From the IMG/VR virus record IMGVR_UViG_3300003873_000003, positions 54,361 through 118,360 of that record: a DNA stretch of 64,000 bases. One strand, given 5' to 3'. The translations under genes and the position numbers were made by a program. This document shows, piece by piece, positions 6,653 to 50,923 of the stretch (its first letter is position 1; the number at the start of each line of letters is the position of its first letter). The notes under the pieces were generated by a model. It did no database searches and was not told the origin of the DNA. It saw only the letters and a list, made by a program, of their open reading frames with translations. The DNA is from a virus.

Positions 6653-7027
6653 TCACCACCTACCCCAGTATCTAAACAAGTCCTTGATTCTAACACCTAC
6701 CCGAACCGAGAAAGAAGTGAACCGTGACTCAATATAGTCTAAAGCAGCAACAAGCAACTTAGTGGACTCTCTACCTACAGCTTCCACCAAGTACGCAAGA
6801 AGCCACACGAAAGAAAGAGCTAGAGTGATGAGTAGCATAGGGACCAACAACGTAAGCCACAGCAAACAGTATCCCACAACAACACACAAAGGGAGAAGGA
6901 ACACTGCAACCTTCGAGCATATTGACTGCGCATGATGCAGCAAGTCCCACTTTACGAGAAGGTGCGCCACATAGCTTTGCGCACTTAACCACATAATGTT
7001 TAGGTTACGGATAACAGAGTTAATCAT
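6653..7027 (-). CDS. small membrane protein
   Basis: 124 aa, overlaps the upstream stop (ATGA), 1-2 hydrophobic helices. Confidence 0.7.
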   Translation of the reverse strand: MINSVIRNLNIMWLSAQSYVAHLLVKWDLLHHAQSICSKVAVFLLPLCVVVGYCLLWLTLLVPMLLITLALSFVWLLAYLVEAVGRESTKLLVAALDYIESRFTSFSVRVGVRIKDLFRYWGRW

Positions 7028-8097
7028 AGCGCCAGCAACCGAGCAATCAATAGTTGCTTATCATCAATGGTGAAGGTCGTGAACTCTTTTTTCAAGTCAA
7101 CCAACCCATTCATAATCGCAGTCATGTCTTCCAAATCAGGAGCTTCTTTTAGCTTGCGGAACTTGGCTAAGAACGTGCGTCTATCATACGAAACATAGTC
7201 CAGCTTCACCTTAGACATGTAGTACAAGGCACAAGTATGAAACTCAAGCATCTTACCTAGAGCCCCAATACTGCAATAGCGAACAATGCTTGTTGGGTTG
7301 TTCGTATAAACACCCATCAGAACTTCAATGGCAGCAACCCCACTTGTCACGTCAAACTGCTCACCGAATGTTTTAAGGACATCAACGTTCTCGCCTGACG
7401 CAATGATGTTAGCCACACCTTCGAGAAGCTGCAAAGAGTCCCTAGGTTGACCGCCTGTAGCATCAAGGATTTGACTCAAGATTTTATCCCGTTCTTCTTG
7501 GCTCTTGAATCGGATACGCTCTGCCTTAGCAGTAGCCTTCAAGAAAGGCATCATATCCTTAGGGGTCAACCTACGTAGGTTCAGCTTAACACATCGACCG
7601 ATGATGGTGTTCATCATCTTATCAGGGTCAGTTGTAGCCAAGAGGAACACTGTATGTTCAGGGGGTTCTTCCAGTAACTTCAACAAACACGATGCACCTG
7701 CTTTTGTCATTTGGTGACATTCATCGAGCAAAAAGACCCGCATGTTGTAATGAGGCATAAATTGAGATTGTTGCTTCAATGCACGGATGTCGTCAATACC
7801 ACGGCTATCACCCATGTTCATCTCGATGAAATCGGGGTGCATGGTGGATTTGCAAGAGGAACACTCGCCGCAGGGGTCGGCTCCTTTTAGGTTTTGGCAG
7901 TTCACAATCGAAGCTAAGATTCGAGATATGGTTGTCTTTCCACTTCCAGTGTCTCCAGATATTAAGATAGCGTTAGGTACGTTACGGCGCTTAACCATAC
8001 CTTTTATCATATCACACACAGGCTTTTGACCAACAACCTCGCCGAGCGTTCGAGGGCGCAGTTTCACCGCCAAACTTTCTGATACCATTGAACTCAT
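7024..8097 (-). CDS. dnaX: clamp-loader AAA+ ATPase, DNA polymerase III gamma/tau-like
   Basis: LAVKLRP..L.EVVGQ, Walker A GDTGSGKTT, Zn module C...PCGECSSC, DECHQM, LLKLLEEPP, TIIGRC. Confidence 0.93.
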   Translation of the reverse strand: MSSMVSESLAVKLRPRTLGEVVGQKPVCDMIKGMVKRRNVPNAILISGDTGSGKTTISRILASIVNCQNLKGADPCGECSSCKSTMHPDFIEMNMGDSRGIDDIRALKQQSQFMPHYNMRVFLLDECHQMTKAGASCLLKLLEEPPEHTVFLLATTDPDKMMNTIIGRCVKLNLRRLTPKDMMPFLKATAKAERIRFKSQEERDKILSQILDATGGQPRDSLQLLEGVANIIASGENVDVLKTFGEQFDVTSGVAAIEVLMGVYTNNPTSIVRYCSIGALGKMLEFHTCALYYMSKVKLDYVSYDRRTFLAKFRKLKEAPDLEDMTAIMNGLVDLKKEFTTFTIDDKQLLIARLLAL

Positions 8098-8158
8098 AAT
8101 GAAACTCCTATTAAACTATAATAAAACTCTTTCACGTCATTTACAGAAACCTACAACG

Positions 8159-8196
8159 AAAAAGGCAACGTAACTGATATAGTGTTACGTTGCCTT
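8159..8196 (-). terminator. intrinsic terminator
   Basis: 13-bp perfect stem AAGGCAACGTAAC/GTTACGTTGCCTT with a T-run on minus, right after the 8206 stop. Confidence 0.75.
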
Positions 8197-8205
8197 AACA
8201 TAAAG

Positions 8206-8862
8206 CTAGTCCCCTACAGTATCGTCACTAGGTACGAGACTTTCAGTTTCATCGGTTGATTCATCGGGATTGCGGACATAGCCGTCACCCTCGGTAGTTG
8301 AGCTGTCAACATCCATAGACAAAGGAGCCGCAGAATAACAGGTGGACGGCACATACCAACCTTCGAGCAGCAAGTCTTCGAGCGATGGGTTCCAACCTCC
8401 GCAGAAAAGTCGGTCAGGTTCAACGGTCAAGGCTTCACCTACATCGTCATAGGTGTTCTTATCGAACAAGTACACACCCAACATCATAGAGGAGGGGTCA
8501 TAGTCTTTCAAGGCGAAAGGTTTTAGTGGGTCAGGTGCTACAGAATCCACCAAAGCAACCACCATAACAGTCTCCTTCTGCGCAGGCGTAAGAACAACAG
8601 GGATAGAGGCAGGTAATGCCCCATCGAAGTTCTTATGTGCAACTAGCTTACCACGATGCAGAACATCAAGCAAGCAAGTGCGCTCTACAGGTTCAGAGAC
8701 AGTAGCAGCTACTGCGGAGTGTAAGCTATCAATAGCCTCACCTACGGTATCACCCGATGCTATATCTTGTGTTACATCAGCCCCCGTTGCAGTGACTTTA
8801 GTGGTTGTAGTACCATTTGAGGTTTTACCTCGCTTGTTCTTGTTCTTTCTCATTTTCATCAT
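8206..8862 (-). CDS. hypothetical protein
   Basis: 218 aa, AAGGAG RBS, basic N-terminus and acidic C-terminus. Confidence 0.7.
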   Translation of the reverse strand: MMKMRKNKNKRGKTSNGTTTTKVTATGADVTQDIASGDTVGEAIDSLHSAVAATVSEPVERTCLLDVLHRGKLVAHKNFDGALPASIPVVLTPAQKETVMVVALVDSVAPDPLKPFALKDYDPSSMMLGVYLFDKNTYDDVGEALTVEPDRLFCGGWNPSLEDLLLEGWYVPSTCYSAAPLSMDVDSSTTEGDGYVRNPDESTDETESLVPSDDTVGD

Positions 8863-8939
8863 TCTCCTTTTAGTTTAACTTAGTAGGGGTTCAACTAGAC
8901 ATGCGTAACTGCACTCTAGGACTTACACTGTTTAAGTGA

Positions 8940-9317
8940 CTAACTTGTAGTATCACCTTCGCCGTTAGCAGTCTCCCGCATAGCTTGTTTATATTGGCGC
9001 AAGCGAAGAATATCCTTATTCAGTTTGTACTCTTGCCGACATGCTTTACGGACTCGTTTCTGATAGGAAGCCTCCAGACCATCATTTAGGTTAGCGACTA
9101 AACCCTTGACGGTATCAGACTGACCAGCAACACTAAGTGACTCATCAAGAAGAAGTTTAGCCTCGTGTATCGCCAACGAACACCTAAGAAGCTTTTTGCT
9201 GCGGCGAGCTACTTTACGTTCCAAACGGATTAGGGTTCGCAAGCCCGAGTTGGATTCAGTTAAGTACGCTGATTTTCCTCCCCCTGTATCCGACTGCTTG
9301 TCTTTCTCGTTACTCAT
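8940..9317 (-). CDS. hypothetical basic coiled-coil protein
   Basis: 125 aa, AAGGAGG RBS. Confidence 0.7.
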   Translation of the reverse strand: MSNEKDKQSDTGGGKSAYLTESNSGLRTLIRLERKVARRSKKLLRCSLAIHEAKLLLDESLSVAGQSDTVKGLVANLNDGLEASYQKRVRKACRQEYKLNKDILRLRQYKQAMRETANGEGDTTS

Positions 9318-9368
9318 TGTTTGTACCTCCTTTCGTACTTCGTGCGGTGGCTTTACACTTTCTAGCCA

Positions 9369-10391
9369 TCACTTCTTAGGTATAGATTTCATCTTGAAGC
9401 ATTTACCCCCGTTAGCGAATGGGCAGGGGTACACAGACTTACCGCTCGCATCCTTCTTCATGTAACCATTAAAGAACTCTGATTTGTATTCGGCTAGGCT
9501 CTTGCACGGTTTAGCTTTCAAAAGAAACTTCTCCGCAGAAGCATGTTTCGGGTCTTTAAGTAGGGCTGTGCCTGCACGCCTTTGTTTGTATTCCATATCC
9601 ATCTTGCGTACCTCATCTGCCCTCACAGATTCATCCGTTGCGAAGTAGAAAGGTCGTACCCCCTCTAGCCGAGTCTTACCTGACATAGATGTCACAGACT
9701 TAGCTGCTGTATCACGACCCAAGTAGATTAAGAAAAACCCTGATATAGTGATACCATGAAGCTTGGTTATCAAACCTGCGTACCTACGAGCTTGATAAGG
9801 GTGGTAAGACACAGGTAGCCCCCTGCCAGTGTCGACTTTATCCTTGGATGTAGTCTTGTATTCAAGAACATAGTATTTTCCGTTTGCGGCTTGGAACACA
9901 CCATCGACATGCCCCGTGAAGGTGTTGACACCACACAGCTTACGTTTCACTGACATAAGCACATTGTCTTTCTTTGCGGCATCCTCCATCTTCTTGAAGT
10001 CTCTTGGGGGCCATGCTACTTCAAGCTCTTCATAGAAAAAATTGCGGTCGGTTTGACCGCAGCACTCACACACAGTTGGCTCCAACTGGTTATAGTGTAG
10101 CTTACCGCAAACCTTACCCTTATGGTAGGATAAACAACGCCATGTACCGAATAGCTTTCCTTTGTTTGTCTTATAGATAAGCCGTTGCACAGTCTCATGC
10201 ACTGCTGTCCCGATTGTCGTATAGTGGAATCCACCGTAGTCAAAGGAAGAGCTTGGCTGGTCCCGCCTATCCACGTAGTCCAATAAACCACAGTACGGTA
10301 GTGAGGATGCCCGAAACTCGGTACGTGCTGCCTCGTTCTCTTCATAGACTAACATATTGGATAGCATTTCTTTTATTGCTTTTTGTGGCAT
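9369..10391 (-). CDS. Cas4-like PD-(D/E)XK exonuclease
   Basis: FRASSLPYC, IGTAVHE, GHVDG...VLEYKT, QARRY and C-terminal Cys (PCK...CPF...C). Likely start ATG 10391. Confidence 0.8.
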   Translation of the reverse strand: MPQKAIKEMLSNMLVYEENEAARTEFRASSLPYCGLLDYVDRRDQPSSSFDYGGFHYTTIGTAVHETVQRLIYKTNKGKLFGTWRCLSYHKGKVCGKLHYNQLEPTVCECCGQTDRNFFYEELEVAWPPRDFKKMEDAAKKDNVLMSVKRKLCGVNTFTGHVDGVFQAANGKYYVLEYKTTSKDKVDTGRGLPVSYHPYQARRYAGLITKLHGITISGFFLIYLGRDTAAKSVTSMSGKTRLEGVRPFYFATDESVRADEVRKMDMEYKQRRAGTALLKDPKHASAEKFLLKAKPCKSLAEYKSEFFNGYMKKDASGKSVYPCPFANGGKCFKMKSIPKK

Positions 10392-10494
10392 ACAGGCTCC
10401 TGTTGTTACTTTCACTTTAAGTTAGTCATATTTACATTTCTTATCCAGTTAATTAGTGTAAATGTGTAAACCTCTAAGCACAACAGGAGGAATC

Positions 10495-11130
10495 ATGGGA
10501 TTCAAATTTCAAATAGACAAGCACGGCACGTACACAGAGTATCTAAGGGTGGAAGGAAACTTTAGGCGAATAGTTAAAGCCCTACCTACTAAGCGACCTA
10601 TGGACGAGCCGTTCAACGGCGTGCGCTTTATAAACGAGCAAGGTGAGGTGGTGAGGGACGTAGCTTTCCCACAGAAAGCCTACATAATCGAAGGTACTCG
10701 CTTCTTCAAGAACCCTACGATGCACTCAACCATCTGGGCATACGACCAAGAAGAGGGCGTGGTTTATGCGTCAAGCAAAGGTAGCCCTATTGCTAAGCTC
10801 AAGATGAAAGTTAAAGCGATGACCAACCTAGGGAGGGTGATGCTAGTAGAACCCCATAATGGTAAGAAGGTCTACGCATTGTTTGAACACCTTGGGAAGA
10901 TACTCAAGGAAGAAACACACCTTAAAACAGTATCAGGTACGTACCCCTCTAGGCTATGCCGCAGGGGTTTAAGCACCGACTGCACAGGCGCAGAAGAACG
11001 AATAGAAGGTGTTTGGGATGACTGGGGTGTACGGATGTACTTCGGTGCGGATGTAATTCTGTCTGTCGAGGTGTTTAGCAAGGACTCGGTTGTGATAAAA
11101 TCTACGAAAATAGGAGCAGATAATGCCTAA
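10495..11130 (+). CDS. hypothetical protein
   Basis: Start MGFKF after AGGAGG. Confidence 0.7.
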   Translation: MGFKFQIDKHGTYTEYLRVEGNFRRIVKALPTKRPMDEPFNGVRFINEQGEVVRDVAFPQKAYIIEGTRFFKNPTMHSTIWAYDQEEGVVYASSKGSPIAKLKMKVKAMTNLGRVMLVEPHNGKKVYALFEHLGKILKEETHLKTVSGTYPSRLCRRGLSTDCTGAEERIEGVWDDWGVRMYFGADVILSVEVFSKDSVVIKSTKIGADNA

Positions 11131-11359
11131 AGAAAAAGAGAAGCAAGCACGGGAGTATAAACTAATATCCTCGGCTATACGCCGCAAGATACCAAGCAAA
11201 CCCTCGTACAACGATATAAAAGCGAACACAGAAGCAGCGATTCTATACCGAGCTTACACAGAAATAAGCAAGCTTGCGGACAGCATCATAGCAGACGCAG
11301 TAAACCTACCCGAACACAAGAAGGTGGATAAGCTACTAACATCAATCCGCCGACTATAG
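11123..11359 (+). CDS. hypothetical protein
   Basis: 78 aa, AGGAG RBS, coupled to the upstream gene. Confidence 0.65.
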   Translation: MPKEKEKQAREYKLISSAIRRKIPSKPSYNDIKANTEAAILYRAYTEISKLADSIIADAVNLPEHKKVDKLLTSIRRL

Positions 11360-11368
11360 GAGACAATA

Positions 11369-11728
11369 ATGGAAGACATAATCAAGCGAATAAGGAAGAA
11401 CAAGGCTAGGTCAGTAACCGTACCGCAGTTACTCCGCAAGGTAAGAGAACAGCCACCCGAACCCCAAGATGCGCTAGAGTGCAAGGTAGGTTCAAAGAAA
11501 GCATTTAACAAAGTCAAAAATGAAGGGAAAGCCACATCAAAAGAAATCAATGTCCTACTTGACCTAGTAAACAGGATGCACATGGCAGTTAGGCACTCAA
11601 CCCACCTAAAGAACGGCGTGTACAGCAAAGAAGGGTTCGATGTTTACACCCCACTCTCGGAAGCCATCAACAGCCTCAAAGAAATGATAGAAGATGCAGC
11701 AGAATATAACGATAAATACAACAAATAA
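11369..11728 (+). CDS. hypothetical protein
   Basis: 119 aa, AGGAG RBS. Confidence 0.7.
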   Translation: MEDIIKRIRKNKARSVTVPQLLRKVREQPPEPQDALECKVGSKKAFNKVKNEGKATSKEINVLLDLVNRMHMAVRHSTHLKNGVYSKEGFDVYTPLSEAINSLKEMIEDAAEYNDKYNK

Positions 11729-11762
11729 TTGCAATTTATTTGCATTTTTCTTCAAATAATGC

Positions 11763-11790
11763 TTGACAAACCGTAAATCCCCGTTATCAT
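11763..11790 (+). promoter_or_regulatory. sigma70-type promoter
   Basis: TTGACA-16 nt-TATCAT with an AT-rich upstream element; a TGTAAAT motif follows at 11794. Confidence 0.65.
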
Positions 11791-11808
11791 TACTGTAAAT
11801 AGTGTATA

Positions 11809-11943
11809 GAATCGTGGTGTGGGGAGCAATGAGCTAACTCCTCCTAAGAATGCTCTGATGTACCCTCAAGATGCAACCCCACATCACGATTCACAACATA
11901 CGTTCTTTACCCTCAAGGAAGGCTCTAACTGCCACTCTAGAGC
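11809..11943 (+). ncRNA. candidate structured leader or ncRNA
   Basis: 16-bp closing stem GAATCGTGGTGTGGGG/CCCCACATCACGATTC (one G-U) extended inward by GCA/TGC and TGAG/CTCA; second hairpin GCTCTA...TAGAGC; TACCCTCAAG present twice. Confidence 0.5.
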
Positions 11944-12024
11944 ATACTTTATTTCGAGTTTTCGTTTAGTTAATTGGGTATAAGAGCAAATAATACAAAG
12001 AACAACAGATACAAGGAGCCTCAC

Positions 12025-14031
12025 ATGCCACTAAACTTGGCGTTACTAGCTACAGCGCATCCTGACGATGTGTTGAAGACTATCGAAGTCGTAGCAAAGC
12101 GAGATAAGCGAGACTATAGCAAAGCGGTTCTATCTACAGAAGGCGTGAAACCAAAGTCTAGAACTCTCACCCCAGAAGATTACAAAGGTAATAAGTTTGC
12201 AAAGCGCATTGTGCGTTTTTTCTCCGTTCTAAAGCCTACGAAAGCAGAGACTTTAGAGGCGTATATGAACGCTGAACTCTCAAGATACAAAGATACCCAC
12301 TCTGTAGCCCACATCAAGCACTACCTGTACTATCGTAACAAGCTCATCCGCCTCCACAACAAGGAAGCGAAGGCTCGCAAGCGAGACCTTGCCCTGCCCA
12401 AAAGGGACTGGAAGCACGCTGACCCCAATAATCTCCCTAAAATCTACTTCGAGGACTACCGTCCTACCAAAGAAGATGATTATCCTATGTACCAACTCTC
12501 CCATCTTAAAGACCCTGTAAGGAAGCTACTTTCTAAGTACGCTTCCTTTCGCACGTTCACGCCTAGGGTTCAAGAAGAGATGGTATATTTACTCTCCCAT
12601 GCCATTGTATCAGGCAAGAAAGCACCTATCCCACAGAACTTCCTTATCCACCGCACCCCAACACTTATCAGACAGCAAGTTGATAAAACAACTGGTGAAG
12701 TACACACAGGTTACGCTTGGTTGCAAGAGTATAACCTACTGCGCACTACGGACTACACTATGGGCTATATGACAGCTCATGGCAAGTATCACACAGGCAT
12801 CTGCCGCCGTTGGACAGTAAACCCCAAGCTTTACACGATTGACCTGCAATCCCAAGAAGAAATGCTAGAAAGCATGAGCCATACCAAACAGAACTTCAAG
12901 AACGCCACCTTCTATTTCTCCAAAGATGGCTCCCGCCACCGCATCACGCCTCAATGCAAGCAAGCTATGGAATGTGACCCTATTGTTCTTAACATCACAG
13001 CAGCCAAGAAACGACTTGCCGAGCTTAAAGCCGACAAAGCCACACAAGGGAAGTACCTCAACGACCTACGCTGCCTAAACCTCATACTTTCCCAAGCAAC
13101 CACCTTCAAACACGATAATACCCTCTTCGCTACGTACACCCCCAAATACCGTGTTGTATCCACAGGGCGTATCCAAGAGTTCGGTGGTGGATTACAAACA
13201 ATCTCCCGCCTCTCCAAACAAGCCCTCCTACATAAGACAGGCATCCGCAACGTGGACATCAAAGGCTCTCAAGTTATGATACTTGAGCAAACTCTACGTA
13301 ACCATGGCTTCACAGAATCAGCAGACCGCATCAAAGCGTACTGTAACACCAACAGAGCCAAACTAGCGGCTAAATGCACCCTCCCCGAATCTGTCTTTAA
13401 GCGTGTTGTACTATCAACCATCTTTGGTGCAACCATGTCACTCAAGAACGGTCGTACATTCCAAGACCTAGTAGCATCCGTACACCCAACCCCAGAGGCT
13501 AGGGAGCGTTGCCTGCGCCTATGTAAGCGTCATTTAAGCTTTCTCACCCAAGCCATTGAAGATTATGACTCAATCTTTGCTCACAAGACCACACACGTCA
13601 ATGCAATGGGTACAATCTACAAAGGAAACTACTCATCTAAGGTGAGAGCCCACTATCTTCAAGGACAAGAAGCAGACTTGGTAAGAAGACAAACCAAATG
13701 TGCCAACGAACATGACGGCTACATGACACATACCAAAGAGTCCCTTGAGCTTCTACAAGCATGTCATAAACAAATCTCAAGTGTAACAAACCTAAGTGTC
13801 AGTAAAGAGTGGTCAAAGAGTACCATGGAACAGGCTAAGAATAGTAAGTTAGCTATATGGTTAAGAACACTAAGAAACACTAAGTTAGAGCAATGTAACC
13901 TAAGCAAGAAGCTACAGGGAGCCATGAGGAAGGCAAGAATCACCATTACGTATGCACTAATATATACCTCCGACATATATACAAGACAAGGCAGTGTCTG
14001 TAGTACCTACACACAGCCGTTAGATGCTTAG
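12025..14031 (+). CDS. divergent family-A polymerase-like protein (TV-Pol-like)
   Basis: TGRI..GGGLQ, motif A NVDIKGSQ, motif B FKRVVLSTIFG, LQGQEAD and motif C EHDG in PolA order. Start ATG 12025 after AAGGAG. Confidence 0.7.
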   Translation: MPLNLALLATAHPDDVLKTIEVVAKRDKRDYSKAVLSTEGVKPKSRTLTPEDYKGNKFAKRIVRFFSVLKPTKAETLEAYMNAELSRYKDTHSVAHIKHYLYYRNKLIRLHNKEAKARKRDLALPKRDWKHADPNNLPKIYFEDYRPTKEDDYPMYQLSHLKDPVRKLLSKYASFRTFTPRVQEEMVYLLSHAIVSGKKAPIPQNFLIHRTPTLIRQQVDKTTGEVHTGYAWLQEYNLLRTTDYTMGYMTAHGKYHTGICRRWTVNPKLYTIDLQSQEEMLESMSHTKQNFKNATFYFSKDGSRHRITPQCKQAMECDPIVLNITAAKKRLAELKADKATQGKYLNDLRCLNLILSQATTFKHDNTLFATYTPKYRVVSTGRIQEFGGGLQTISRLSKQALLHKTGIRNVDIKGSQVMILEQTLRNHGFTESADRIKAYCNTNRAKLAAKCTLPESVFKRVVLSTIFGATMSLKNGRTFQDLVASVHPTPEARERCLRLCKRHLSFLTQAIEDYDSIFAHKTTHVNAMGTIYKGNYSSKVRAHYLQGQEADLVRRQTKCANEHDGYMTHTKESLELLQACHKQISSVTNLSVSKEWSKSTMEQAKNSKLAIWLRTLRNTKLEQCNLSKKLQGAMRKARITITYALIYTSDIYTRQGSVCSTYTQPLDA

Positions 14032-14222
14032 ATAGCCTATTCAGCATCACCCACCCACATTATCTTAATGTAGCTTATTGTGCAGCCAGCATGACCATAT
14101 AACCCCTAATCACATTGATTACGAACCACTCTATGTACCACCCTTGCATCCAGAGTACCCCTTAAACTACACTATACCAACCAATAATACCTACACTAAT
14201 TGAAGTGCAGGAGGAGAATACT

Positions 14223-14432
14223 ATGCCTACTACAACTATCAACCCATTGCGTTTTATGGTACAAGCCTCGGAAGTACGTAATAGAAAGAACTGCCCCATC
14301 TGCCACAGGTCTATGGAGCATGTAACAGCACATAATGACGTAAAAGCCTTTGTTTGCTTGACAGACCGTGTTTGTTTACCTGACACTGGTGAAGACTACG
14401 CCCAAAACACCCAAAACTTGATGTTACATTAA
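14223..14432 (+). CDS. small zinc-ribbon protein upstream of portal
   Basis: GGAGGAG RBS; CPIC...CLTDRVC. Confidence 0.7.
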   Translation: MPTTTINPLRFMVQASEVRNRKNCPICHRSMEHVTAHNDVKAFVCLTDRVCLPDTGEDYAQNTQNLMLH

Positions 14433-14445
14433 AAGGGGAACCATC

Positions 14446-16167
14446 ATGTATAAAGGTTACAAACTAACATCAGCCTTCGGGAAGACGAGTATCACCTCGT
14501 CTATGTCGGGGATGAACATAAACACTTCAAATGGTTCGTCTGATACTAGCGTACTTGATGGTTTCATTTCAACTAAGGAATCCATACTACGTAAGGTGTA
14601 CAGGGACATATACTACCACGATAGTATCGGTGGCGCAGCCGTTGACCTTATTGCTGACTTGACATTCTCACCGTTTGAGCTAGGTGGTGTCCCTGATTCT
14701 GTTAAGGATGTTTACCAAGATAAGCTGGCTAACTTCGACTTTGCCACTTTCCTGCCTGAATTGTCACTAGACTACCATGTGTACGGTGCTTTCTGTGGGA
14801 GCTTGAACTTCAACGCCGAGACCAAAGCCTTCAATAGCTGCATACCACATCAACTTGAGAACTTGCATTTCACCGAGGTTCCACTCTTCGGGAGTGACCC
14901 CCTCATTGACTTGAAAGCACCCAAGAGCTTGCGTAACGCCTTCAACAGCAACGATAGTCGTATGAGGGCTATCATGTCAACAGCACCCTCTAAGTTGAAC
15001 AGTGATGGACTTATCCATTTAGACCCTGCAACCACGTTGTTTATGGCTCGCCGTTCTATGGCTTCTGACTCACAGATTGTATCTTACTACCGCCGTATAT
15101 TACCTTACTATCTCTTGGAGACTTCTATCTTGAAGGGAAGTATCACCCAAGCACGCCAACGTCAAAGAGCTATTTTGATGCTATCTGTAGGTGATGAAGA
15201 TTGGGAACCAACCCAAGCCGACCTTGCGGATATTACTGATATGTTTATGTCTGCTAATGCTGACCCTTTGGGTGCTGTGGTTGCATTGCGTAAAGGTGTT
15301 GAGGCACAAGAGGTAATGCAGGGTGGGGAGTTTTGGAAGATTGACGACATCTATGAAAGTATGTCATCCATGAAGATGCGAGCTTTAGGCATGAACGAAG
15401 CTATGCTTACAGGCGAGGGTTCTTGGAACAACGCTGAACAAGCTGTGGAGTCTTTCTTGATGTACCTAGAGGCACATCGGGCAACTGTTTGTCGTAAAGT
15501 GTTTTATGATAAAATCTTTCCCTTAATCAGCATCACAAGTGGGTTGAAGAAGGAATCCACAGAGGCAGACTATAAGCCCCCTAAAGACTTTGATATTCAT
15601 CGTGTGGAAGCCTCACTTGTAGCCCCTGGGAATACCGAACTGAAAGCCGCCCTTGAGAATGTTGATTACGCTAAGTACCACATCCCTACCGTGATATGGA
15701 AGAAAGCCTTGTCGCCCACATCGGATGGTGACTACATGCAGAGGTTATCTGACTTAGCTGATGCAGAAGTCCCTGTAACCATGCGTATGTACGCTCAAGC
15801 AGCAGGGGTTGACTTCGACACATTATTGAACTCACTTGATGAGGATGTGAACGATAGACTAGCTGTTGCCGAGTACCAAGATAGGGTGGATTCAGGTGAC
15901 CCAGCCCATGATGATGAGTTCGGTGATAGCATGAAGCTTACGGGCAGCTTGAAACGAGTAGGCTTTGCTAAAAGAGAGTTCCCTAAGCTTGATAAAGATA
16001 AAGCACAAAAGGAAAACAAAGTCCTTTCTAAGGCATTGTCCAATGTTTCAAAGAAAAAGACGCACCAAGCTAATGAAGCTCACACAAACGAAAATGGTAA
16101 GACTTATTCATACCCAAACAAGGGGCGTGTCCACAGTGATATAAAGAAAGGAGATAAGGATGGCTAA
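14446..16167 (+). CDS. portal protein
   Basis: 573 aa; YRDIYYHDSIGGAAVDLIA, RALGMNEAMLTGEGSWNNA and WKKAL patterns typical of portals. Confidence 0.75.
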   Translation: MYKGYKLTSAFGKTSITSSMSGMNINTSNGSSDTSVLDGFISTKESILRKVYRDIYYHDSIGGAAVDLIADLTFSPFELGGVPDSVKDVYQDKLANFDFATFLPELSLDYHVYGAFCGSLNFNAETKAFNSCIPHQLENLHFTEVPLFGSDPLIDLKAPKSLRNAFNSNDSRMRAIMSTAPSKLNSDGLIHLDPATTLFMARRSMASDSQIVSYYRRILPYYLLETSILKGSITQARQRQRAILMLSVGDEDWEPTQADLADITDMFMSANADPLGAVVALRKGVEAQEVMQGGEFWKIDDIYESMSSMKMRALGMNEAMLTGEGSWNNAEQAVESFLMYLEAHRATVCRKVFYDKIFPLISITSGLKKESTEADYKPPKDFDIHRVEASLVAPGNTELKAALENVDYAKYHIPTVIWKKALSPTSDGDYMQRLSDLADAEVPVTMRMYAQAAGVDFDTLLNSLDEDVNDRLAVAEYQDRVDSGDPAHDDEFGDSMKLTGSLKRVGFAKREFPKLDKDKAQKENKVLSKALSNVSKKKTHQANEAHTNENGKTYSYPNKGRVHSDIKKGDKDG

Positions 16168-16711
16168 GAAACTAATATACCACGGGGATAACTATGGTGG
16201 TAAGTTAAAGCTCACAGATAAGTATATGAAGTTGAGTAACAACCAAGAAGGTATGGGTATATACTTTGGGAACCTATCCATAGCTAGAGGGTACGGTGAC
16301 GACATTACAGAAGCCGAGATTGATACCTCACGTTTCGCCGATAGTCGTAACCCCACCTACCGTGTGTTATCTTCGAGAGCTGTTTTGAAGATGTTGAAGT
16401 ACCTTGCAAAAGAAGACTTGGAGTCGATGTGGTATCTAGCTACTGACTACGGCTTTGATGTCGATATGGAAGATACGATTGACGTACTCCCCAACTTAGC
16501 GCACGCTATGAAGGACGAGGAGATTCGCAACTTCCAAATCACTTTGGCTCAATCGTTCGGCACAGTGCCACTGTCAAAAGCATGGAAATCTGCAACTCGC
16601 CTAATGGGTCTGTACCACACAGAGAACAATCCGCACGACCACTCCGAGTTGACTATCTACTCTGTTATTGACTTAGAGGGGCTTAAATACCATAGGTACA
16701 ACCCTGAATAG
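16160..16711 (+). CDS. ADP-ribosyltransferase-like protein (ART-PolyVal type)
   Basis: IYHG...EGMGIYFG...ARGYG signature; coupled to the portal gene. Confidence 0.55.
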   Translation: MAKKLIYHGDNYGGKLKLTDKYMKLSNNQEGMGIYFGNLSIARGYGDDITEAEIDTSRFADSRNPTYRVLSSRAVLKMLKYLAKEDLESMWYLATDYGFDVDMEDTIDVLPNLAHAMKDEEIRNFQITLAQSFGTVPLSKAWKSATRLMGLYHTENNPHDHSELTIYSVIDLEGLKYHRYNPE

Positions 16712-19237: not shown

Positions 19238-19324
19238 GAAGCACCCTACGTGGATGACATGTAGGGTGCTTCACGTTTCCATGTACAGAAAAGCGACTCT
19301 AGGTTTAACCTAGAGTCGCTTTTT
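19238..19324 (+). terminator. tandem hairpins, second is a terminator
   Basis: GAAGCACCCTAC/GTAGGGTGCTTC then AAAAGCGACTCTAGGTT/AACCTAGAGTCGCTTTT. Confidence 0.8.
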
Positions 19325-27051: not shown

Positions 27052-28094
27052 CGGCGAAGCTTAGATTTGTTTTCTGTAGTGACTTCCATTTAGGGGCACT
27101 AAAGCAACACTTCGGCAAGCAGGCAACTTCCTACATACTCGATTGCTGTAAAAAGGCTTTCGAGTATGCTGTGGAAGAGGGTATGGATGTTGTTGTCATT
27201 GGGGGTGACATCGCAGACAAGCTTCCTCTTGCACAGGAAGACTTGCTTGCTCTGATACGTCTTTTCCATTCTTTCCCTACGCTGCACTTTCATATTGATA
27301 TGGGGAACCATGACTTCGATAGTGAGGATAACAATTCACTTACACTGCTAGAGTGGTTGGGTGAGGTGCAGCTAGTCCCCAACTGCACTGTGTACACAAG
27401 CCTCACCCTGACAGACATTGAGGGTATTCCTTTCTGTTTCGTTCCTCACCCGTTCACAGCGGCTATTGAGACAGATACACCCAAGATAAACGTAGGACAC
27501 TTTGAAGTTCGGGGTGCAACTCGTGACAACGGCTCTGTGAATAATAAGGGTGTTGAACTAGCTGACCTTTCTGATGATTACTGGTTGGTGGGTCACCTTC
27601 ATACACATCAATACCACTACAAGAAGCGTATTGCGTATTGTGGGAGTCTATTTCAGAAGACCTTTGGGGAGAAACTTCCCAAGGGGTTTTTGGCATGTGA
27701 GGCGCACTTCAATGGGACTAAGCTTCGTATGCGTTCAATGTTTATTGAGTCAAAGCCTGCCATGTTTCTTCGCACTAAGTACGCTAAGTCGGAGGATGGG
27801 CTGCGTGTACGGAACGCTGCGAACGTCAGATACAGACTTTTCGTTGACGCTTCGGTAGAGGTTCCCGAATCCTACCTAGCGGATAATCCGTCTGTTACCT
27901 CGTTGGTGGTTGGTGAGAAGGAAGACTTGAAAGCAATCAAGGATTTCTCTGTTACTGTAGATACTGAAATACTAGGGGACGATTTAGCTACTATTGGTCT
28001 TGAAGATTACCTTGAAGCGCAAGGTCTCGATGAAACCCATGTGGCTAGGTCTCTCGCTATTGTGGAGGATTATTTATGCCCACAGACATCGTAG
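27048..28094 (+). CDS. sbcD: SbcD/Mre11-like metallophosphoesterase nuclease (gp47-like)
   Basis: SDFHLG, GGDIAD, GNHD, GHF, GHLH, YCGS. Confidence 0.92.
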   Translation: MTAKLRFVFCSDFHLGALKQHFGKQATSYILDCCKKAFEYAVEEGMDVVVIGGDIADKLPLAQEDLLALIRLFHSFPTLHFHIDMGNHDFDSEDNNSLTLLEWLGEVQLVPNCTVYTSLTLTDIEGIPFCFVPHPFTAAIETDTPKINVGHFEVRGATRDNGSVNNKGVELADLSDDYWLVGHLHTHQYHYKKRIAYCGSLFQKTFGEKLPKGFLACEAHFNGTKLRMRSMFIESKPAMFLRTKYAKSEDGLRVRNAANVRYRLFVDASVEVPESYLADNPSVTSLVVGEKEDLKAIKDFSVTVDTEILGDDLATIGLEDYLEAQGLDETHVARSLAIVEDYLCPQTS

Positions 28095-28969
28095 TTGGTG
28101 AGTTGCAGAATTATGTGCGAACAACCCACACTACCTATCGGCGTGGTTCGGGCTACTGGTTTGTAGCCTGTCCATTCCACAAGGAAAAAACACCGAGTTG
28201 CAAGGTGAATACAAAAGCCTCGACCAAGTACCATGTTGGTGACTTCAAGTGCTTCGGTTGTGGCATCCGTGGTGACTGGGGAGCATTTAGTGCAGAGGCT
28301 AACCTAAAGGGTATTTCCTTTGTTGAGAACTTTAGTGAGTACGGTGCTGTTGGGAAGGTTAGCACTCGTGAGGTGACGGAGGAATACGACCCCGTTATGG
28401 CGTTTGACTGGAAGAAGAAGGATGGTGACTGGAGGGGGATTCCTAATGATACCGTACGTGCTGTAGGTGGTAAAAAGGTATTCTCTGACTTCTTCAATGA
28501 TACAGCCTTGTTTCTTCCTTGTAGTGTCAACGGTTCCGTTTTAGGAGGCATAACTTGCCGACTATCGAAGGGGGAGGGGCTATCTTACCTCAACACCAAG
28601 GGTATTTGGTCAAAGCGGTCACTTTACCCTTACGACCACACTGCAAACATGGTTGAAGCTCTATCGTTAGACTATGCTGTGCTTGTTGAGGGACCTAGAG
28701 ACGCATTAAGGCTTATCTCGTATGGTATACCTGCGGTGGCAGTGCTTGGGGTTGAGTCGTGGAGTTCCTTTAAGGCTGACTTGTTGTACGCTATGGGTAT
28801 CTCTACCTTGGTAGTATTTTCTGATGGGGATAAAGCAGGCAACACGCTGTATAAGAAGGTTACAGCTTCTGTACTACTCCCTACCATAAAGGTGAAGGTT
28901 CAGTATGGCGAAGACCCTGGTAACTGTAAGGAGAGTAAGATAAAGGCTATCAAGCGCAAGTTCGGTTGA
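28076..28969 (+). CDS. DNA primase (CHC2 zinc finger + TOPRIM)
   Basis: CPFHKEKTPS...CFGCG, LVEGPRDA, FSDGDKAG, EDPG. Confidence 0.92.
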   Translation: MPTDIVVGELQNYVRTTHTTYRRGSGYWFVACPFHKEKTPSCKVNTKASTKYHVGDFKCFGCGIRGDWGAFSAEANLKGISFVENFSEYGAVGKVSTREVTEEYDPVMAFDWKKKDGDWRGIPNDTVRAVGGKKVFSDFFNDTALFLPCSVNGSVLGGITCRLSKGEGLSYLNTKGIWSKRSLYPYDHTANMVEALSLDYAVLVEGPRDALRLISYGIPAVAVLGVESWSSFKADLLYAMGISTLVVFSDGDKAGNTLYKKVTASVLLPTIKVKVQYGEDPGNCKESKIKAIKRKFG

Positions 28970-28993
28970 TGTTACCCTATATTTTAGACAAAT

Positions 28994-29031
28994 AAAAAGG
29001 CACGGTGTATTTGATTACACCGTGCCTTTTT
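28994..29031. terminator. bidirectional terminator
   Basis: AAAAAGGCACGGTGTA/TACACCGTGCCTTTTT between convergent genes. Confidence 0.85.
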
Positions 29032-29051
29032 ACGTTGTGGACTTGGGTTTC

Positions 29052-48586: not shown

Positions 48587-50923
48587 ATGAGAAACGAACA
48601 AAGTGCTTTCCTTGATACTGGAATTGGGGGAAGTGATACGAGACCGACACACCCTGACGTACAAGTAGGTACGCATGATGAGCAGTTGAGGGCAGCTCGG
48701 GCTGGTATGACACAAATCCAAAACCTTGTGCAGAACACCAACAACGTGTTGGCAGGTACGCAGGGTATAGATGAAGAGAGTTCCCGTGAGCTAGAGACTC
48801 TTAAAGAATCATTGCAAACCGCCGACTCTTTGTTGGGTAAGATTCTTGACCCTCGTGTCCCTGCCAGTGCTAGTGAGGTTCAAGCTCTATCGACTTATTA
48901 CCATAAGATTGATGATATAATCAACAATTCGCATATTGCGCTCCGTAATGGTCAGGATTTAAGCGCACACCTCATGCAGCAATCTCGACTAACGAATCGT
49001 CAGATTCTAACCGAAGGACACCTTGGCGATATTGTTGAAAACTTGGGTTCTCAAGTAGAAGGCTCTTTCGAGAGCTTTGTTTCAAACAATGCTATTGAGG
49101 TTAGTACACGCAGCATGGCAGGCGACTTGACTCGTACTGCCATGATTGCAGGTATGGGTCCCGCAGGTATGCTCGTGCCGCTTATCGACAGGGCTGTAGG
49201 GATTGATAACCTTGCAGACAAGACCCTAGGTGCGGTTGGAGGTCTTGTTAAAGGTACTTTCGGTGGAGCAGGCAGCCTTATAAGCCGTGTTGTACGCCCC
49301 GAAGGTGGAGTCGTTGATGCTAAGATAAAAGACCTGCAAGCGAAAGCAGCATCCAAGAAGCAAGACTTCTTAGACAAGCGTGAAGAGAAACGTGAAGAAG
49401 CCCTAGATAGGAAGAAAGCCAAGCGTCTAAAGCGTGAGCTTAAACGCATGAATGTCGAGTTCGATGAAGAAGGTTGGCTACTTCGCAAAGGGGAGGCACG
49501 CCAAGATAAGTACCGCAAGCGTAGGCTAGAACGCATAGCCGCCACAGAGAGTGTTGAGTCCGAAGCTGTTGCTTCTCTACTACAAGAGGCTGGCGTTGTC
49601 GGTGGTCAAGTTCAAGCTCGCATGTTGGGTGACCCATCAACCCAAGAGCGACCCACACCTGAGATACAGCCTGTTGAGCCTACACCTGAACCTGCGGCTG
49701 ACCCAACACCTGAACCACGCCGTACAGCTTCGTCTTCGGCAGATGAGCCGTATATGGCACCCGTACCTCCGTTTGAGGATAGTGCTAGAGGTACTCAAGC
49801 ACACAGTTCCGAAGATGTTAGCCCTACCTCGTCTTCTAGTGAGCCACAGCGTGAACCATTATTTGACGTTCGTCCTCCAAGCCGAACAGCCGAACCTAGT
49901 CAGGGCATTAGAAGCCCTGCCCGTAGTGTGCAGTTCCGCAAGAAAGAGGCTAAGCGTATCTATAAGCCTATTGTGGCAGAAATACGCTTAGCCTCCAAGG
50001 ATAACACAGAGGCTATACTTGGTGATACTGGGGTTGTATCTGCGTTACATGACATCAACGATACCTTGAAAGCCACAGATGAACATAACTCACGTAACAA
50101 TGGAGATGGTGGGGGTTCAGTGCTAGATGGTCTTGTTGGTGCAGGTGGTGGTATCCTCGGCGCATTGGGTGGTTTGTTCAGTCGGTTTCGAGGTAGCGGT
50201 CGTACCAGTGAGACTCATAGGACAAATGAGACTCATAGGACAAATGAGACTCATAGGACAAATGAGACTCACAGACCTCAAGGTCGTGTAGAGACCCCTC
50301 GTAGCAGCTTACATGCACCTCATGGTGTTCGAGCCCCAGGGTTGCTCGGTGCAGCTATGGATTTGGCAGGCGGCGCATCTGATGTTACGGATATTCTATC
50401 AGATGAAACCCTTAGTGAGCATGACCGCAACGTTGAGGCTTCTAGGGCAGGCGGTGAAGCTGTTGGGGGTATGGCAGGTGCTGTACTTGGAGGTGAGGCA
50501 GGTGCATCCGCAGGTGCAGTTATTGGTACTATGGTCTTCCCTGGGGTTGGTACTGCTGTAGGCACTGTTCTTGGTGGTCTTCTTGGTAGTTATTTCGGTG
50601 CTGATGCTGTATCGCAAGTTGGGGGGTCTGTGGCTTCGAGTGTGGCAGATTTCTTCTCTTCGCCCGATAATACAGCCACTCACACTGCAACCTCGTCTAC
50701 TGGTGTACCGATGCGTGAGGGTACTGTTCTGCGTGGGAGAGCGTTGTCTGACCCCTCCTCGTCTCGACCTAATGTTACACCTATTGTAAACGTTGCCCCT
50801 CCTAAGGTTGAGGTTAAACTACCTGAATCAAAAGAACAAGAAACGAACAGTGTGAACACTAGCCATATACCGTATCGGACGGATGAGTTCGGTACAGCAC
50901 TTCTTAATGGGGGTCATTTATAA
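48587..50923 (+). CDS. tape measure protein (putative)
   Basis: Position after chaperones; helical, glycine-zipper segments, low-complexity linker. Confidence 0.65.
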   Translation: MRNEQSAFLDTGIGGSDTRPTHPDVQVGTHDEQLRAARAGMTQIQNLVQNTNNVLAGTQGIDEESSRELETLKESLQTADSLLGKILDPRVPASASEVQALSTYYHKIDDIINNSHIALRNGQDLSAHLMQQSRLTNRQILTEGHLGDIVENLGSQVEGSFESFVSNNAIEVSTRSMAGDLTRTAMIAGMGPAGMLVPLIDRAVGIDNLADKTLGAVGGLVKGTFGGAGSLISRVVRPEGGVVDAKIKDLQAKAASKKQDFLDKREEKREEALDRKKAKRLKRELKRMNVEFDEEGWLLRKGEARQDKYRKRRLERIAATESVESEAVASLLQEAGVVGGQVQARMLGDPSTQERPTPEIQPVEPTPEPAADPTPEPRRTASSSADEPYMAPVPPFEDSARGTQAHSSEDVSPTSSSSEPQREPLFDVRPPSRTAEPSQGIRSPARSVQFRKKEAKRIYKPIVAEIRLASKDNTEAILGDTGVVSALHDINDTLKATDEHNSRNNGDGGGSVLDGLVGAGGGILGALGGLFSRFRGSGRTSETHRTNETHRTNETHRTNETHRPQGRVETPRSSLHAPHGVRAPGLLGAAMDLAGGASDVTDILSDETLSEHDRNVEASRAGGEAVGGMAGAVLGGEAGASAGAVIGTMVFPGVGTAVGTVLGGLLGSYFGADAVSQVGGSVASSVADFFSSPDNTATHTATSSTGVPMREGTVLRGRALSDPSSSRPNVTPIVNVAPPKVEVKLPESKEQETNSVNTSHIPYRTDEFGTALLNGGHL
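50209..50271 (+). repeat. 18-bp in-frame tandem repeat (ETHRTN)
   Basis: TGAGACTCATAGGACAAA x3 plus a partial copy. Confidence 0.9.

Follow-up and report, generated by a model that had tools for sequence, protein, structure and literature searches.

A minimal family-A polymerase of the TV-Pol type in an IMG/VR phage genome: a candidate accessory initiating enzyme

What use does a phage that encodes its own replicase have for a second, stand-alone polymerase? The question is raised by P0001, a 668-residue open reading frame (ORF) of the virus record IMGVR_UViG_3300003873_000003. The stretch of DNA analyzed, called the window, is the final 64 kb of this 118,360-nucleotide IMG/VR record, the CheckV completeness of which is 45%. 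Genes on the minus strand occupy the window up to position 10,415, nearly all genes from 10,462 on are on the plus strand, and P0001 sits between the two blocks. An original prediction proposed that a structured RNA upstream of the gene serves the enzyme as template or primer in a retron-like layout, and that the pair fires an origin at the strand-skew switch. On the evidence of sequence profiles and a predicted structure, P0001 belongs to the TV-Pols that carry an N-terminal domain, a subset of a family known since 2008, and shows additions specific to its clade. The function that we propose, with about an even chance of being correct, is that of an accessory, probably site-targeted initiating polymerase of the primase-polymerase type. 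The analysis removes two attractive ideas, the RNA partner and the origin at the skew flip.

Neither Pfam (E ≤ 10) nor NCBIfam (E ≤ 0.1) contains a family that matches P0001, which has a marginal match to one unnamed PHROG. The canonical PolA family PF00476 matches neither P0001 nor nine of its relatives, phmmer and profile hmmsearch find no solved polymerase by sequence in the PDB, and hhalign against the PolA of the same phage alone returns nothing. The family PF00940 of T7-like single-subunit RNA polymerases has no match in the genome, but the control was likewise matched in no genome, and the result is therefore uninformative. The AlphaFold model of P0001 is confident across residues 155-585, with predicted local distance difference test (pLDDT) values mostly above 90. 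In a Foldseek search of the PDB with this model, the Klenow fragment, T7 DNA polymerase, the apicoplast polymerase, and Pol theta rank first, at a probability of 1.00 and E-values of 5e-6 and weaker. In a VIA comparison, model residues 297-664 match the polymerase domain of Pol theta with a Z-score of 15.1 over 273 residues and a root-mean-square deviation of 3.8 Å, and Klenow with a Z-score of 13.4. An exhaustive scan of 48,161 chains returns family-A DNA polymerases in all of its top eight positions (Z 13.9 to 9.7), followed at Z 8-9 by the RNA polymerases (RNAPs) of T7 and mitochondria and the N4 vRNAP. The model of P0001 carries the family-A polymerase fold, in line with the PolA-like palm that had been predicted from its motifs.

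A phmmer search of 1.84 billion cluster representatives identifies 176 relatives of P0001 at E ≤ 1e-3. Only P0002 (686 residues, 50% identity) and P0003 (859 residues, 41% identity) are close, and their starts agree with the start codon of P0001. The other relatives are mostly 450-600 residues long and match residues ~170-590. Conservation has been assessed in alignment A1, which holds 84 of the 150 listed relatives, from which short fragments and the majority of the rows below rank 87 have been left out; the smaller alignment A3 holds ten of the listed relatives. The A1 profile matches a single ORF of Microcystis phage Ma-LMM01, BAF36121, with an E-value of 2.8e-48. Comparison of the P0001 profile with this ORF by hhalign gives a probability of 99.9% and an E-value of 2.8e-32 over 382 columns, which include the N-terminal domain and the polymerase core, and P0001 alone finds it by BLASTP at E 2e-9. 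BAF36121 is 506 residues long, is annotated as hypothetical, and adjoins two IS605-type transposase genes; an antirepressor gene is nearby. Iyer et al. (2008; PMC2579912) count Ma-LMM01 among the carriers, with an integrated TV-Pol element, and describe a subset whose N-terminal globular domain is uncharacterized and which is associated with resolvase, integrase, or IS605/IS630 transposases. The text of the paper names the phage and not the ORF; BAF36121 is taken as the TV-Pol of Ma-LMM01 because it is the sole match in the record and has IS605-type transposases alongside. P0001 is filed as a TV-Pol of the N-domain subset on the basis of its profile match to BAF36121 together with this description, which agrees with the family named in the original prediction. 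The N-domain family has no Pfam, NCBIfam, or named PHROG entry.

The polymerase motifs that had been read from the sequence are all present in the expected order, and they are conserved among the 84 relatives: TGR (residues 380-382), LQ (390-391), DIKGSQ (411-416), K459 followed by F467-G468, LQGQEAD (545-551), and HDG (563-565). Residues G381, R382, and D411 are invariant, and Q391, K398, Q416, K459, G468, L545-Q546-G547, E549, and H563-D564-G565 are kept in at least 90% of the rows. We take these motifs to be those of PolA from what is generally known of PolA and T7 RNAP. In the model, the thumb helices 324-336 and 338-357 are directly ahead of a β-hairpin, within the stretch that is aligned to PolA domains (297-664). 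R382 falls in the strand region 359-385 and is presumably the counterpart of the arginine of the PolA sequence TGRLSS, with which a non-significant hhalign alignment also pairs it. D411 ends the strand 407-412, ahead of the helix 415-426, and together with D564 it presumably forms the metal-binding aspartate pair of the palm. In the fingers, the residue four positions before K459 is E455 in P0001 and is not arginine in the relatives shown; the residue three positions before the lysine is aspartate in many relatives and serine in P0001. Since R382, D411, K459, Q546, and H563-D564 are intact, P0001 is probably an active template-dependent nucleotidyl transferase.

In PolA, a glutamate after motif A acts as a steric gate that excludes ribonucleotides. 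The P0001 family has no glutamate at or near this position, and D411 is followed by IKGSQVMIL. Motif B of both PolA and T7 RNAP contains a tyrosine, and the K-x8-[F/M]-G spacing is the same as in these enzymes; the family has phenylalanine or methionine at the position of the tyrosine. Because the glutamate is lacking and the tyrosine is replaced, members of the family may be capable of RNA synthesis, and the sequence is compatible with the use of deoxynucleoside triphosphates (dNTPs) as well as nucleoside triphosphates (NTPs).

The polymerase core is preceded by a globular domain that contains the conserved residues H192 and L233. When residues 150-304 are modeled alone, the pLDDT is 89. The weak structural and profile matches of this domain are nearly all to winged-helix proteins, including TFIIE (the best Foldseek match, E 0.023), MarR, ArsR, and the N-terminal domain of T4 MotA, and its profile finds an Lrs14-like regulator in the PDB with an E-value of 0.029. 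The domain is thus weakly winged-helix-like in its model and is likely to bind DNA, a property that is treated here as a lead. P0001 matches none of the Pfam exonuclease or helicase families at E ≤ 10, as had been noted from its motifs, and the resemblance of the N-terminal domain to a winged helix, not to an exonuclease, likewise gives no sign of a fused nuclease. Two further segments are confined to P0001, P0002, and P0003. The N-terminal extension is missing from the relatives of ~500 residues, and the low-complexity insertion near the C-terminus varies in length between P0002 and P0003 (alignment A2). Small tandem repeats occur at 13769-13799 and 13862-13884. The C-terminal β-hairpin is kept in all three proteins, and the structural alignments to PolA reach model residues 653-664.

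P0001 is not the replicase of the phage, which encodes a canonical PolA, complete with a 3'-5' exonuclease domain, as well as a DnaB-type helicase, a Toprim protein, and a clamp loader. The original prediction had judged this probable from the presence of a clamp loader and a DnaG primase. The clamp loader stands, and a Toprim_2 ORF is present, but the DnaG N-terminal core PF08275 is absent from the matches across the 118-kb record. The phage PolA shares 35-38% identity with its counterparts in Dickeya phage JA13, Erwinia phage Yoloswag, and Yersinia phage fHe-Yen9-02, which belong to or near the jumbo-phage group described with PaBG. According to PMC7412058, phages of the PaBG type carry Pol I, the gamma and beta subunits of Pol III, a Cas4-like nuclease, and phage sigma factors. 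The pairing of a PolA replicase with a clamp loader in the present phage is the combination that this source reports for the group.

In the proposed reading, P0001 is a stand-alone family-A core of thumb, palm, and fingers, free of proofreading and helicase domains, with a winged-helix-like domain in front. The N-terminal domain may place the polymerase on particular DNA, where the enzyme would start or extend short strands without proofreading, in the manner of primase-polymerase initiation. An accessory role is the most likely one since the phage has its own replicase, helicase, Toprim protein, and clamp loader. The initiating role is derived from the proposal in PMC2579912 of TV-Pols as primase-polymerases built on a family-A fold, and from the de novo synthesis of DNA primers with dNTPs by CcPol-MP (PMC7581432; PMC10061031). 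A more specific conjecture, which we hold tentatively and regard as rather doubtful, is that the N-terminal domain makes P0001 a sequence-specific de novo initiator, resembling a miniature T7 RNAP, that lays RNA or DNA primers or short transcripts at a phage site. If this were true, the N-domain TV-Pols would add a third class to the known primases or transcriptases, one that acts at specific sites.

The gene is predicted to form its own transcription unit, in which a host-type promoter-like site is followed by a leader of ~235 nucleotides. The promoter TTGACA-16-TATCAT, the long hairpin, and the smaller second hairpin of the original prediction are all found (Table 1), the promoter being the best site between 9000 and 16500 in a scan that overall is unenriched, with 10 sites against 11.9 expected from shuffles. 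Inverted repeats with at least 15 of 16 Watson-Crick pairs and arms at most 100 nucleotides apart are present at four loci in the window, whereas dinucleotide shuffles contain 0.075 of them per window, and any at all in 3 of 40 shuffles. The leader hairpin is therefore non-random. The three other near-perfect inverted repeats, at 19288-19323, 28992-29032, and 49946-49995, have arms of 16-17 nucleotides and spacers of 3 to 18 nucleotides, and are likely terminators. The leader of 236 nucleotides as a whole folds only modestly better than shuffled sequences (z −2.05), and 7 of 200 shuffles equal it. The duplication of TACCCTCAAG at 11861 and 11908, which had been listed alongside the hairpins, is present, with one further copy elsewhere in the genome; it is not significant, because shuffled windows contain ~7.3 exact 10-mer pairs within 100 nucleotides, and it has been dropped as a signal. 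Scans with Rfam and, for tRNA, with ARAGORN are empty. Among three runs of one study, none is an RNA data set that contains this stretch.

A structure that partners the enzyme would be expected beside its homologues, and the homologous loci do not share one. The sole locus of the P0001 clade with upstream DNA is L012, the protein of which is 39% identical to P0001. Its upstream region has no sequence in common with the leader of the window and no equivalent hairpin, and the only strong hairpin there is a stem followed by a T-run, which we read as the terminator of the preceding gene. There is also no common structure upstream of five more distant homologues and the Ma-LMM01 gene. In seven orthologues from cultured jumbo phages (L002 and L016-L021), the upstream gap is 392-497 nucleotides long and consists of a terminator, an A-tract with a TTTACAYGG box, and a leader of ~300 nucleotides. 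The terminator and the promoter-like box are kept, the leader is not conserved, and RNAalifold on the seven gaps recovers the terminator only. What the window and the jumbo-phage orthologues appear to have in common is a layout, with a promoter of its own and a long leader, and not a structure. The hairpin of the window is best read as a leader element that acts in mRNA stability, processing, or translation control, and not as template or primer for the enzyme. Upstream of the more distant homologue in L003, a 13-nucleotide unit, ATCTTTATCTTCT, is repeated about six times at ~1960-2050.

The proposed origin leaned on the composition of the locus. Genes of the phage have on average G-rich coding strands, with a mean GC skew of +0.057 and a standard deviation of 0.069 among 123 ORFs, of which P0001 has the lowest value, −0.173. 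Its GC skew at third codon positions is −0.31, rank 2 of 96. A block of negative skew at ~12.1-14.35 kb coincides with the P0001 gene and its 3' flank; the skew is about −0.30 to −0.32 over 13900-14349. This block moves the minimum of the cumulative skew from the strand switch near 10.4 kb to ~15 kb. The composition flip is real, as the original prediction had it, but it is caused by the unusual composition of P0001 itself and of its 3' flank. A repeat scan found no iterons outside the P0001 ORF, and no iterons or AT-rich repeats flank the gene; the only tandem repeats between 9.5 and 15.5 kb are coding, the low-complexity part of P0001 containing two of them and the portal gene the third. On these grounds, the idea of an origin at the skew flip has been rejected. 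The proposal of a template or primer RNA that fires an origin together with the enzyme could still draw on a hairpin that is non-random and placed between promoter and gene, and on the location of the gene at the flip. Against it stand a hairpin that has no counterpart in the nearest homologue, the seven jumbo-phage orthologues without a conserved leader structure, the empty Rfam and tRNA scans, the chance level of the TACCCTCAAG pair, and the origin of the flip in the gene itself. It ranks lowest among the rival explanations and has very little chance of being right.

The composition of P0001, which is unlike the rest of the phage, suggests that the phage acquired the gene separately. A FastTree tree of 96 rows (the 84 rows of A1 and 12 translations from loci) places the seven jumbo-phage orthologues in one clade and P0001-P0003 in another, loosely with the Ma-LMM01 protein, and the two clades are not sister groups. 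The tree lends weak support to a separate acquisition, because its branches are long.

A gene of the family has a fixed position in cultured jumbo phages. A query with the orthologue of phage Alexandra matches 44 cultured jumbo-phage records, of Erwinia (35), Dickeya (8), and Yersinia (1) phages, some of which are GenBank/RefSeq duplicates. The records are 248-267 kb long, the matches are all annotated as hypothetical and nearly all lie at 171-187 kb, and 41 of the 44 cover at least 80% of the query; identities are 36-78%. Since the orthologue is syntenic and has diverged along with the genomes, it appears to be kept and useful. These syntenic orthologues make the idea of a site-specific initiator directly testable. 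Two related jumbo phages, PaBG and Lu11, do not have the gene. Fold matches in BFVD are, in order, uncharacterized proteins of Dickeya phage JA29, an uncultured phage, JA11, and Erwinia phage Yoloswag. Searches for further loci yielded five distant ones among viral contigs with alignment A3 and one among metagenome contigs with alignment A2; viral contigs searched with P0001 and phages searched by megablast gave none. A clamp loader is located within ~4-5 kb of the gene in three of the seven loci compared (the window, L002, and L003), and no other neighbor is common to the window and the compared loci, L012 included. In L007, a contig of a temperate phage, an integrase is positioned 1.7 kb upstream of the homologue, terminase and portal genes follow it, and a KilAC/Ant protein is nearby; this context echoes that of the TV-Pol paper. 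The L003 locus has a transposase-like ORF near the homologue.

Several observations weigh against the proposed assignment and function. At a probability of 1.2% and an E-value of 0.046, a comparison by hhalign with alignment A6, which holds 24 of the 120 listed PolA proteins, is not significant, and it sets motif A in the wrong place, although TGR, K...(Y)G, QG (as IQG), and HDG (as VHDS) are paired correctly; the residue equivalence to PolA therefore rests on the fold match and the motif order. The winged-helix assignment is weak, with a best VIA Z-score of 6.3, and the P0001 family does not conserve the arginine in the RxxxK motif of TV-Pols. The neighbors of P0001 in the window include no D5-type helicase, resolvase, integrase, or transposase, so that the context behind the primase proposal is missing there. 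No partner similar to an SSB (a protein that binds single-stranded DNA) is evident from sequence-family scans, in which the flanking small ORFs match nothing in Pfam, PHROG, or PADLOC apart from a weak zinc finger. With a Toprim protein already present, a second primase is not obviously needed. The codon-usage distance of P0001 as a whole is unremarkable, rank 48 of 96, which together with the long branches of the tree leaves the acquisition history uncertain. Apart from the atypical CcPol, the literature search found no biochemical test of the 2008 primase-polymerase prediction, nor any biochemical study of an N-domain TV-Pol, and the authors of PMC7581432 write that they knew of no other characterized TV-Pol.

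Three other roles have been considered. P0001 could be a promoter-specific single-subunit RNAP, a miniature of the T7 type made early from the host-type promoter, that transcribes a gene set, for example the ~50 kb of plus-strand structural genes downstream, or primer transcripts for an origin. The gene heads the plus-strand late module, and the order of a DNA-binding-type N-terminal domain, thumb, palm, and fingers, with no exonuclease, parallels the single-subunit RNAPs. The alignments to T7 RNAP (Z 9.2, 366 residues), yeast mitochondrial RNAP (Z 8.8, 351 residues), and N4 mini-vRNAP (Z 8.3, 386 residues) span model residues ~160-650, the N-terminal domain included, and are longer than the ~270 residues aligned to DNA polymerases. 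The lack of a glutamate at the steric gate and the motif B spacing are also compatible with such an enzyme. However, DNA polymerases match the core more closely (Z 13.9-15) than RNAPs do (Z 8-9), and no promoter-like motif is repeated: the 15-nucleotide repeat TGCTTGACA[A/G]ACCGT, which is found at 11760 and 14355 and was considered as a phage promoter motif, has no further copies in the genome. The gene content given in PMC7412058 for the related group includes phage sigma factors, which implies use of the host RNAP, and the elements described in PMC2579912 include small transposon-like ones, in which a transcriptase makes little sense. We consider this role unlikely. A repair, gap-filling, or lesion-bypass polymerase that lacks proofreading, similar to Pol theta or Pol nu and acting for instance on recombination intermediates, would fit the absence of an exonuclease domain, the Cas4-like PD-(D/E)XK nuclease among the neighbors, and the best structural matches, which are Pol theta polymerase domains (Z 15.1); Pol nu follows at Z 13.0 in VIA and 11.6 in the exhaustive scan. 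Differences of ~1-2 Z units among family-A DNA polymerases do not single out Pol theta, however, and no repair gene is a conserved neighbor common to the window and the loci of the homologues. To our knowledge, repair polymerases usually lack a winged-helix-type N-terminal domain. A repair function is distinctly improbable.

The gene could also be a passenger, a TV-Pol that serves a small mobile element, or is what is left of one, and plays no part in phage replication. PMC2579912 defines TV-Pols in transposon-like elements, one of them inside Ma-LMM01, and transposases adjoin the ORF of that phage. The P0001 gene is a compositional outlier and stands isolated as a transcription unit, the quick tree does not make its clade the sister of the jumbo-phage orthologues, PaBG and Lu11 lack the gene, and the homologue in L006 is a lone plus-strand gene that is split into two ORFs. 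By contrast, the window has no integrase, resolvase, transposase, or bounding repeats, the catalytic residues are intact, and the syntenic orthologue in the 44 jumbo-phage records has diverged with its genomes. The passenger explanation is improbable. The accessory initiating polymerase remains the proposed function of P0001.

Table 1 Features of the P0001 locus, with positions in the window unless a homologous locus is named
Feature	Position	Strand	Remarks
Clamp loader	7024-8097	−	PF13177, E 4e-34
Cas4-like PD-(D/E)XK nuclease	9369-10415	−	phrog_1706, E 7e-18; 1.6 kb upstream of P0001, on the opposite strand
Intergenic gap	11729-12024		Between ORF 11369-11728 and the start of P0001
Sigma-70-type promoter-like site	11763-11790	+	TTGACA-16-TATCAT; 11/12 matches, top site within 9000-16500
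Predicted long 5' leader, ~235 nucleotides	11791-12024	+	Deduced from where promoter and start codon lie
Hairpin with 16-bp closing stem	11809-11824 and 11877-11892 (arms)	+	Arms 94% complementary, 52-nucleotide interior
Second hairpin, small 6-bp stem	near 11925-11945
Ribosome-binding site AAGGAG	12013-12018	+	6 nucleotides ahead of ATG, read from the sequence
P0001, 668-residue ORF, TV-Pol-type minimal family-A polymerase (assigned)	12025-14031	+
N-terminal extension, residues 1-154	12025-12486	+	Model mostly of low confidence; helical hairpin 74-121
N-terminal globular domain, residues 155-296, winged-helix-like	12487-12912	+	Common to the wider family
Thumb, palm, and fingers of family-A polymerase, residues 297-585	12913-13779	+
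T380-G381-R382 codons	13162-13170	+	G381 and R382 invariant, 84/84
D411 codon, presumed metal-binding Asp of motif A	13255-13257	+	Invariant, 84/84
K459 to G468 codons, motif B-like K-x8-F-G	13399-13428	+	K459 and G468 each kept in 90% or more of the rows
L545-Q-G-Q-E-A-D551 through H563-D564-G565, motif C region	13657-13719	+
Low-complexity K/S/T/N-rich insertion, residues 587-645	13783-13959	+	pLDDT <50
C-terminal β-hairpin, residues 646-665 (ARITIT...)	13960-14019	+	Completes the palm in the model
C/A-rich 3' intergenic stretch	14032-14222	+	Prolongs the negative GC skew of P0001; no tandem repeats
69-residue zinc-ribbon-like ORF, CxxC-type cysteines	14223-14432	+	Weak PF23145 match, E 4e-4, below cut-off
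Portal	14446-16167
Toprim_2 domain ORF	28076-28969	+	Sole Toprim_2 match in the record, E 1.8e-7
Jumbo-phage gene of ~165-175 residues, L002	9374-9871
Same gene, L016	2799-3266
Same gene, L017	2788-3312
Same gene, L018	2788-3312
Same gene, L019	2760-3284
Same gene, L021	2775-3272

A 192-nucleotide gap separates P0001 from the small zinc-ribbon-like ORF, and the portal gene comes next. Directly after the stop codon of the preceding ORF, at 11730-11749, a weak A/T-rich stem (TGCAA / TTGCA) is followed by TTTTT. The stem, at which the terminator scan made no call, may act as a terminator and so isolate the polymerase gene. No direct or inverted repeats bound the P0001 gene in the window, and the idea of mobile-element borders has been discarded. 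A defense-system reading was dropped because PADLOC gave no match.

Some of the homologous loci have peculiarities of their own. In L006, a 190-kb viral contig, the homologue at 7587-9086 is divided into ORFs of 246 and 250 residues and is the sole plus-strand gene among minus-strand neighbors; it may be broken or frameshifted. At 852 residues, the product of the clamp-loader gene of L003 (7480-10038) is extended at its N-terminus; the additional stretch, possibly an inserted element, matches phrog_9666 and a terminase-like PHROG. The deposited starts of AD1_214 of Dickeya phage AD1 (L017) and of JA11_200 (L020) are ~550 and ~440 nucleotides too late. Their ORFs are open from ~1174 and ~1177 in the respective loci, and the portion ahead of the deposited start matches the Alexandra protein. 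The gene of ~165-175 residues that accompanies the TV-Pol in jumbo phages is a candidate partner and has no significant Pfam match (one is sub-threshold, E 0.0054); JA11 has a gene of 362 residues in its place. The N-terminal extension of P0001 was considered as a fused form of the ~165-residue gene, but no similarity was found.

Among known systems, retron-like pairs of an RNA and a polymerase have a conserved structured non-coding RNA beside the gene, which is not seen for P0001 in a comparison of limited power that covers one upstream region of its clade. T7-like RNAPs, namely those of T7 and mitochondria and the N4 vRNAP, have the same domain order as P0001, no exonuclease, and 350-386 residues in structural alignment (Z 8.3-9.2). 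Their Z-scores are lower than those to DNA polymerases, P0001 is much smaller and has no sequence-family match to them, and no specificity loop or other promoter-recognition element has been identified in it. Canonical PolA (PF00476) has the same polymerase-domain fold (Z 13-15) and motif order as P0001, which differs in having no Pfam match, no 3'-5' exonuclease, a shorter distance from QG to HD, and phenylalanine or methionine for what we take to be the tyrosine of motif B.

CcPol-MP and the PolA-SSB primases encoded by SCCmec and by mobile elements of Bacillota (Bebel et al. 2020, eLife; Rice 2023, Front Mol Biosci) likewise use a family-A domain outside the replicase role, on a mobile genome. 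CcPol-MP is the only TV-Pol-labelled enzyme with biochemistry, and makes its DNA primers de novo (PMC7581432; PMC10061031). As described there, CcPol needs a small OB-fold partner from an adjacent gene and a helicase, neither of which is evident beside P0001 in sequence-family scans. PMC7581432 also states that CcPol keeps the ribonucleotide-excluding residues of PolA, namely E174 and the equivalent of F762, whereas the P0001 family lacks a glutamate near motif A.

The closest known counterpart is the N-domain subset of TV-Pols (Iyer, Abhiman and Aravind 2008, Biol Direct 3:39), which have a minimal family-A core with no nuclease, as does P0001. P0001 has the core features of TV-Pols: the thumb helices, the arginine-bearing β-hairpin, the two palm aspartates, the fingers lysine, an N-terminal globular domain, and carriage by a phage. 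It differs in keeping the lysine and not the arginine of RxxxK, and in having no transposase, resolvase, integrase, or D5 helicase alongside, which is the typical context of TV-Pols and not a strict requirement. Its N-terminal domain is modeled as winged-helix-like, with helices and a β-hairpin, whereas PMC2579912 predicted an all-helical domain. The 154-residue N-terminal extension and the low-complexity C-terminal insert belong to P0001-P0003 only. To the description of 2008, the present analysis adds a large N-domain family of 176 representatives, a winged-helix-like form of the N-terminal domain, and an orthologue, annotated as no more than hypothetical, with a fixed place in 44 records of cultured jumbo phages.

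The orthologues of these jumbo phages (Alexandra gp224, Y3 gp219, and those of AD1, JA11, JA13, JA29, and others) are ~24% identical to P0001, form a separate clade, are ~525-545 residues long, and lack the N-terminal extension. In six of the seven jumbo phages compared, the gene of ~165-175 residues abuts or overlaps the TV-Pol stop codon, and it has no counterpart in the window. The orthologues belong to the same family as P0001, have the same two-domain architecture, and, like P0001, follow a long intergenic region in which a promoter-like box is succeeded by a long leader.

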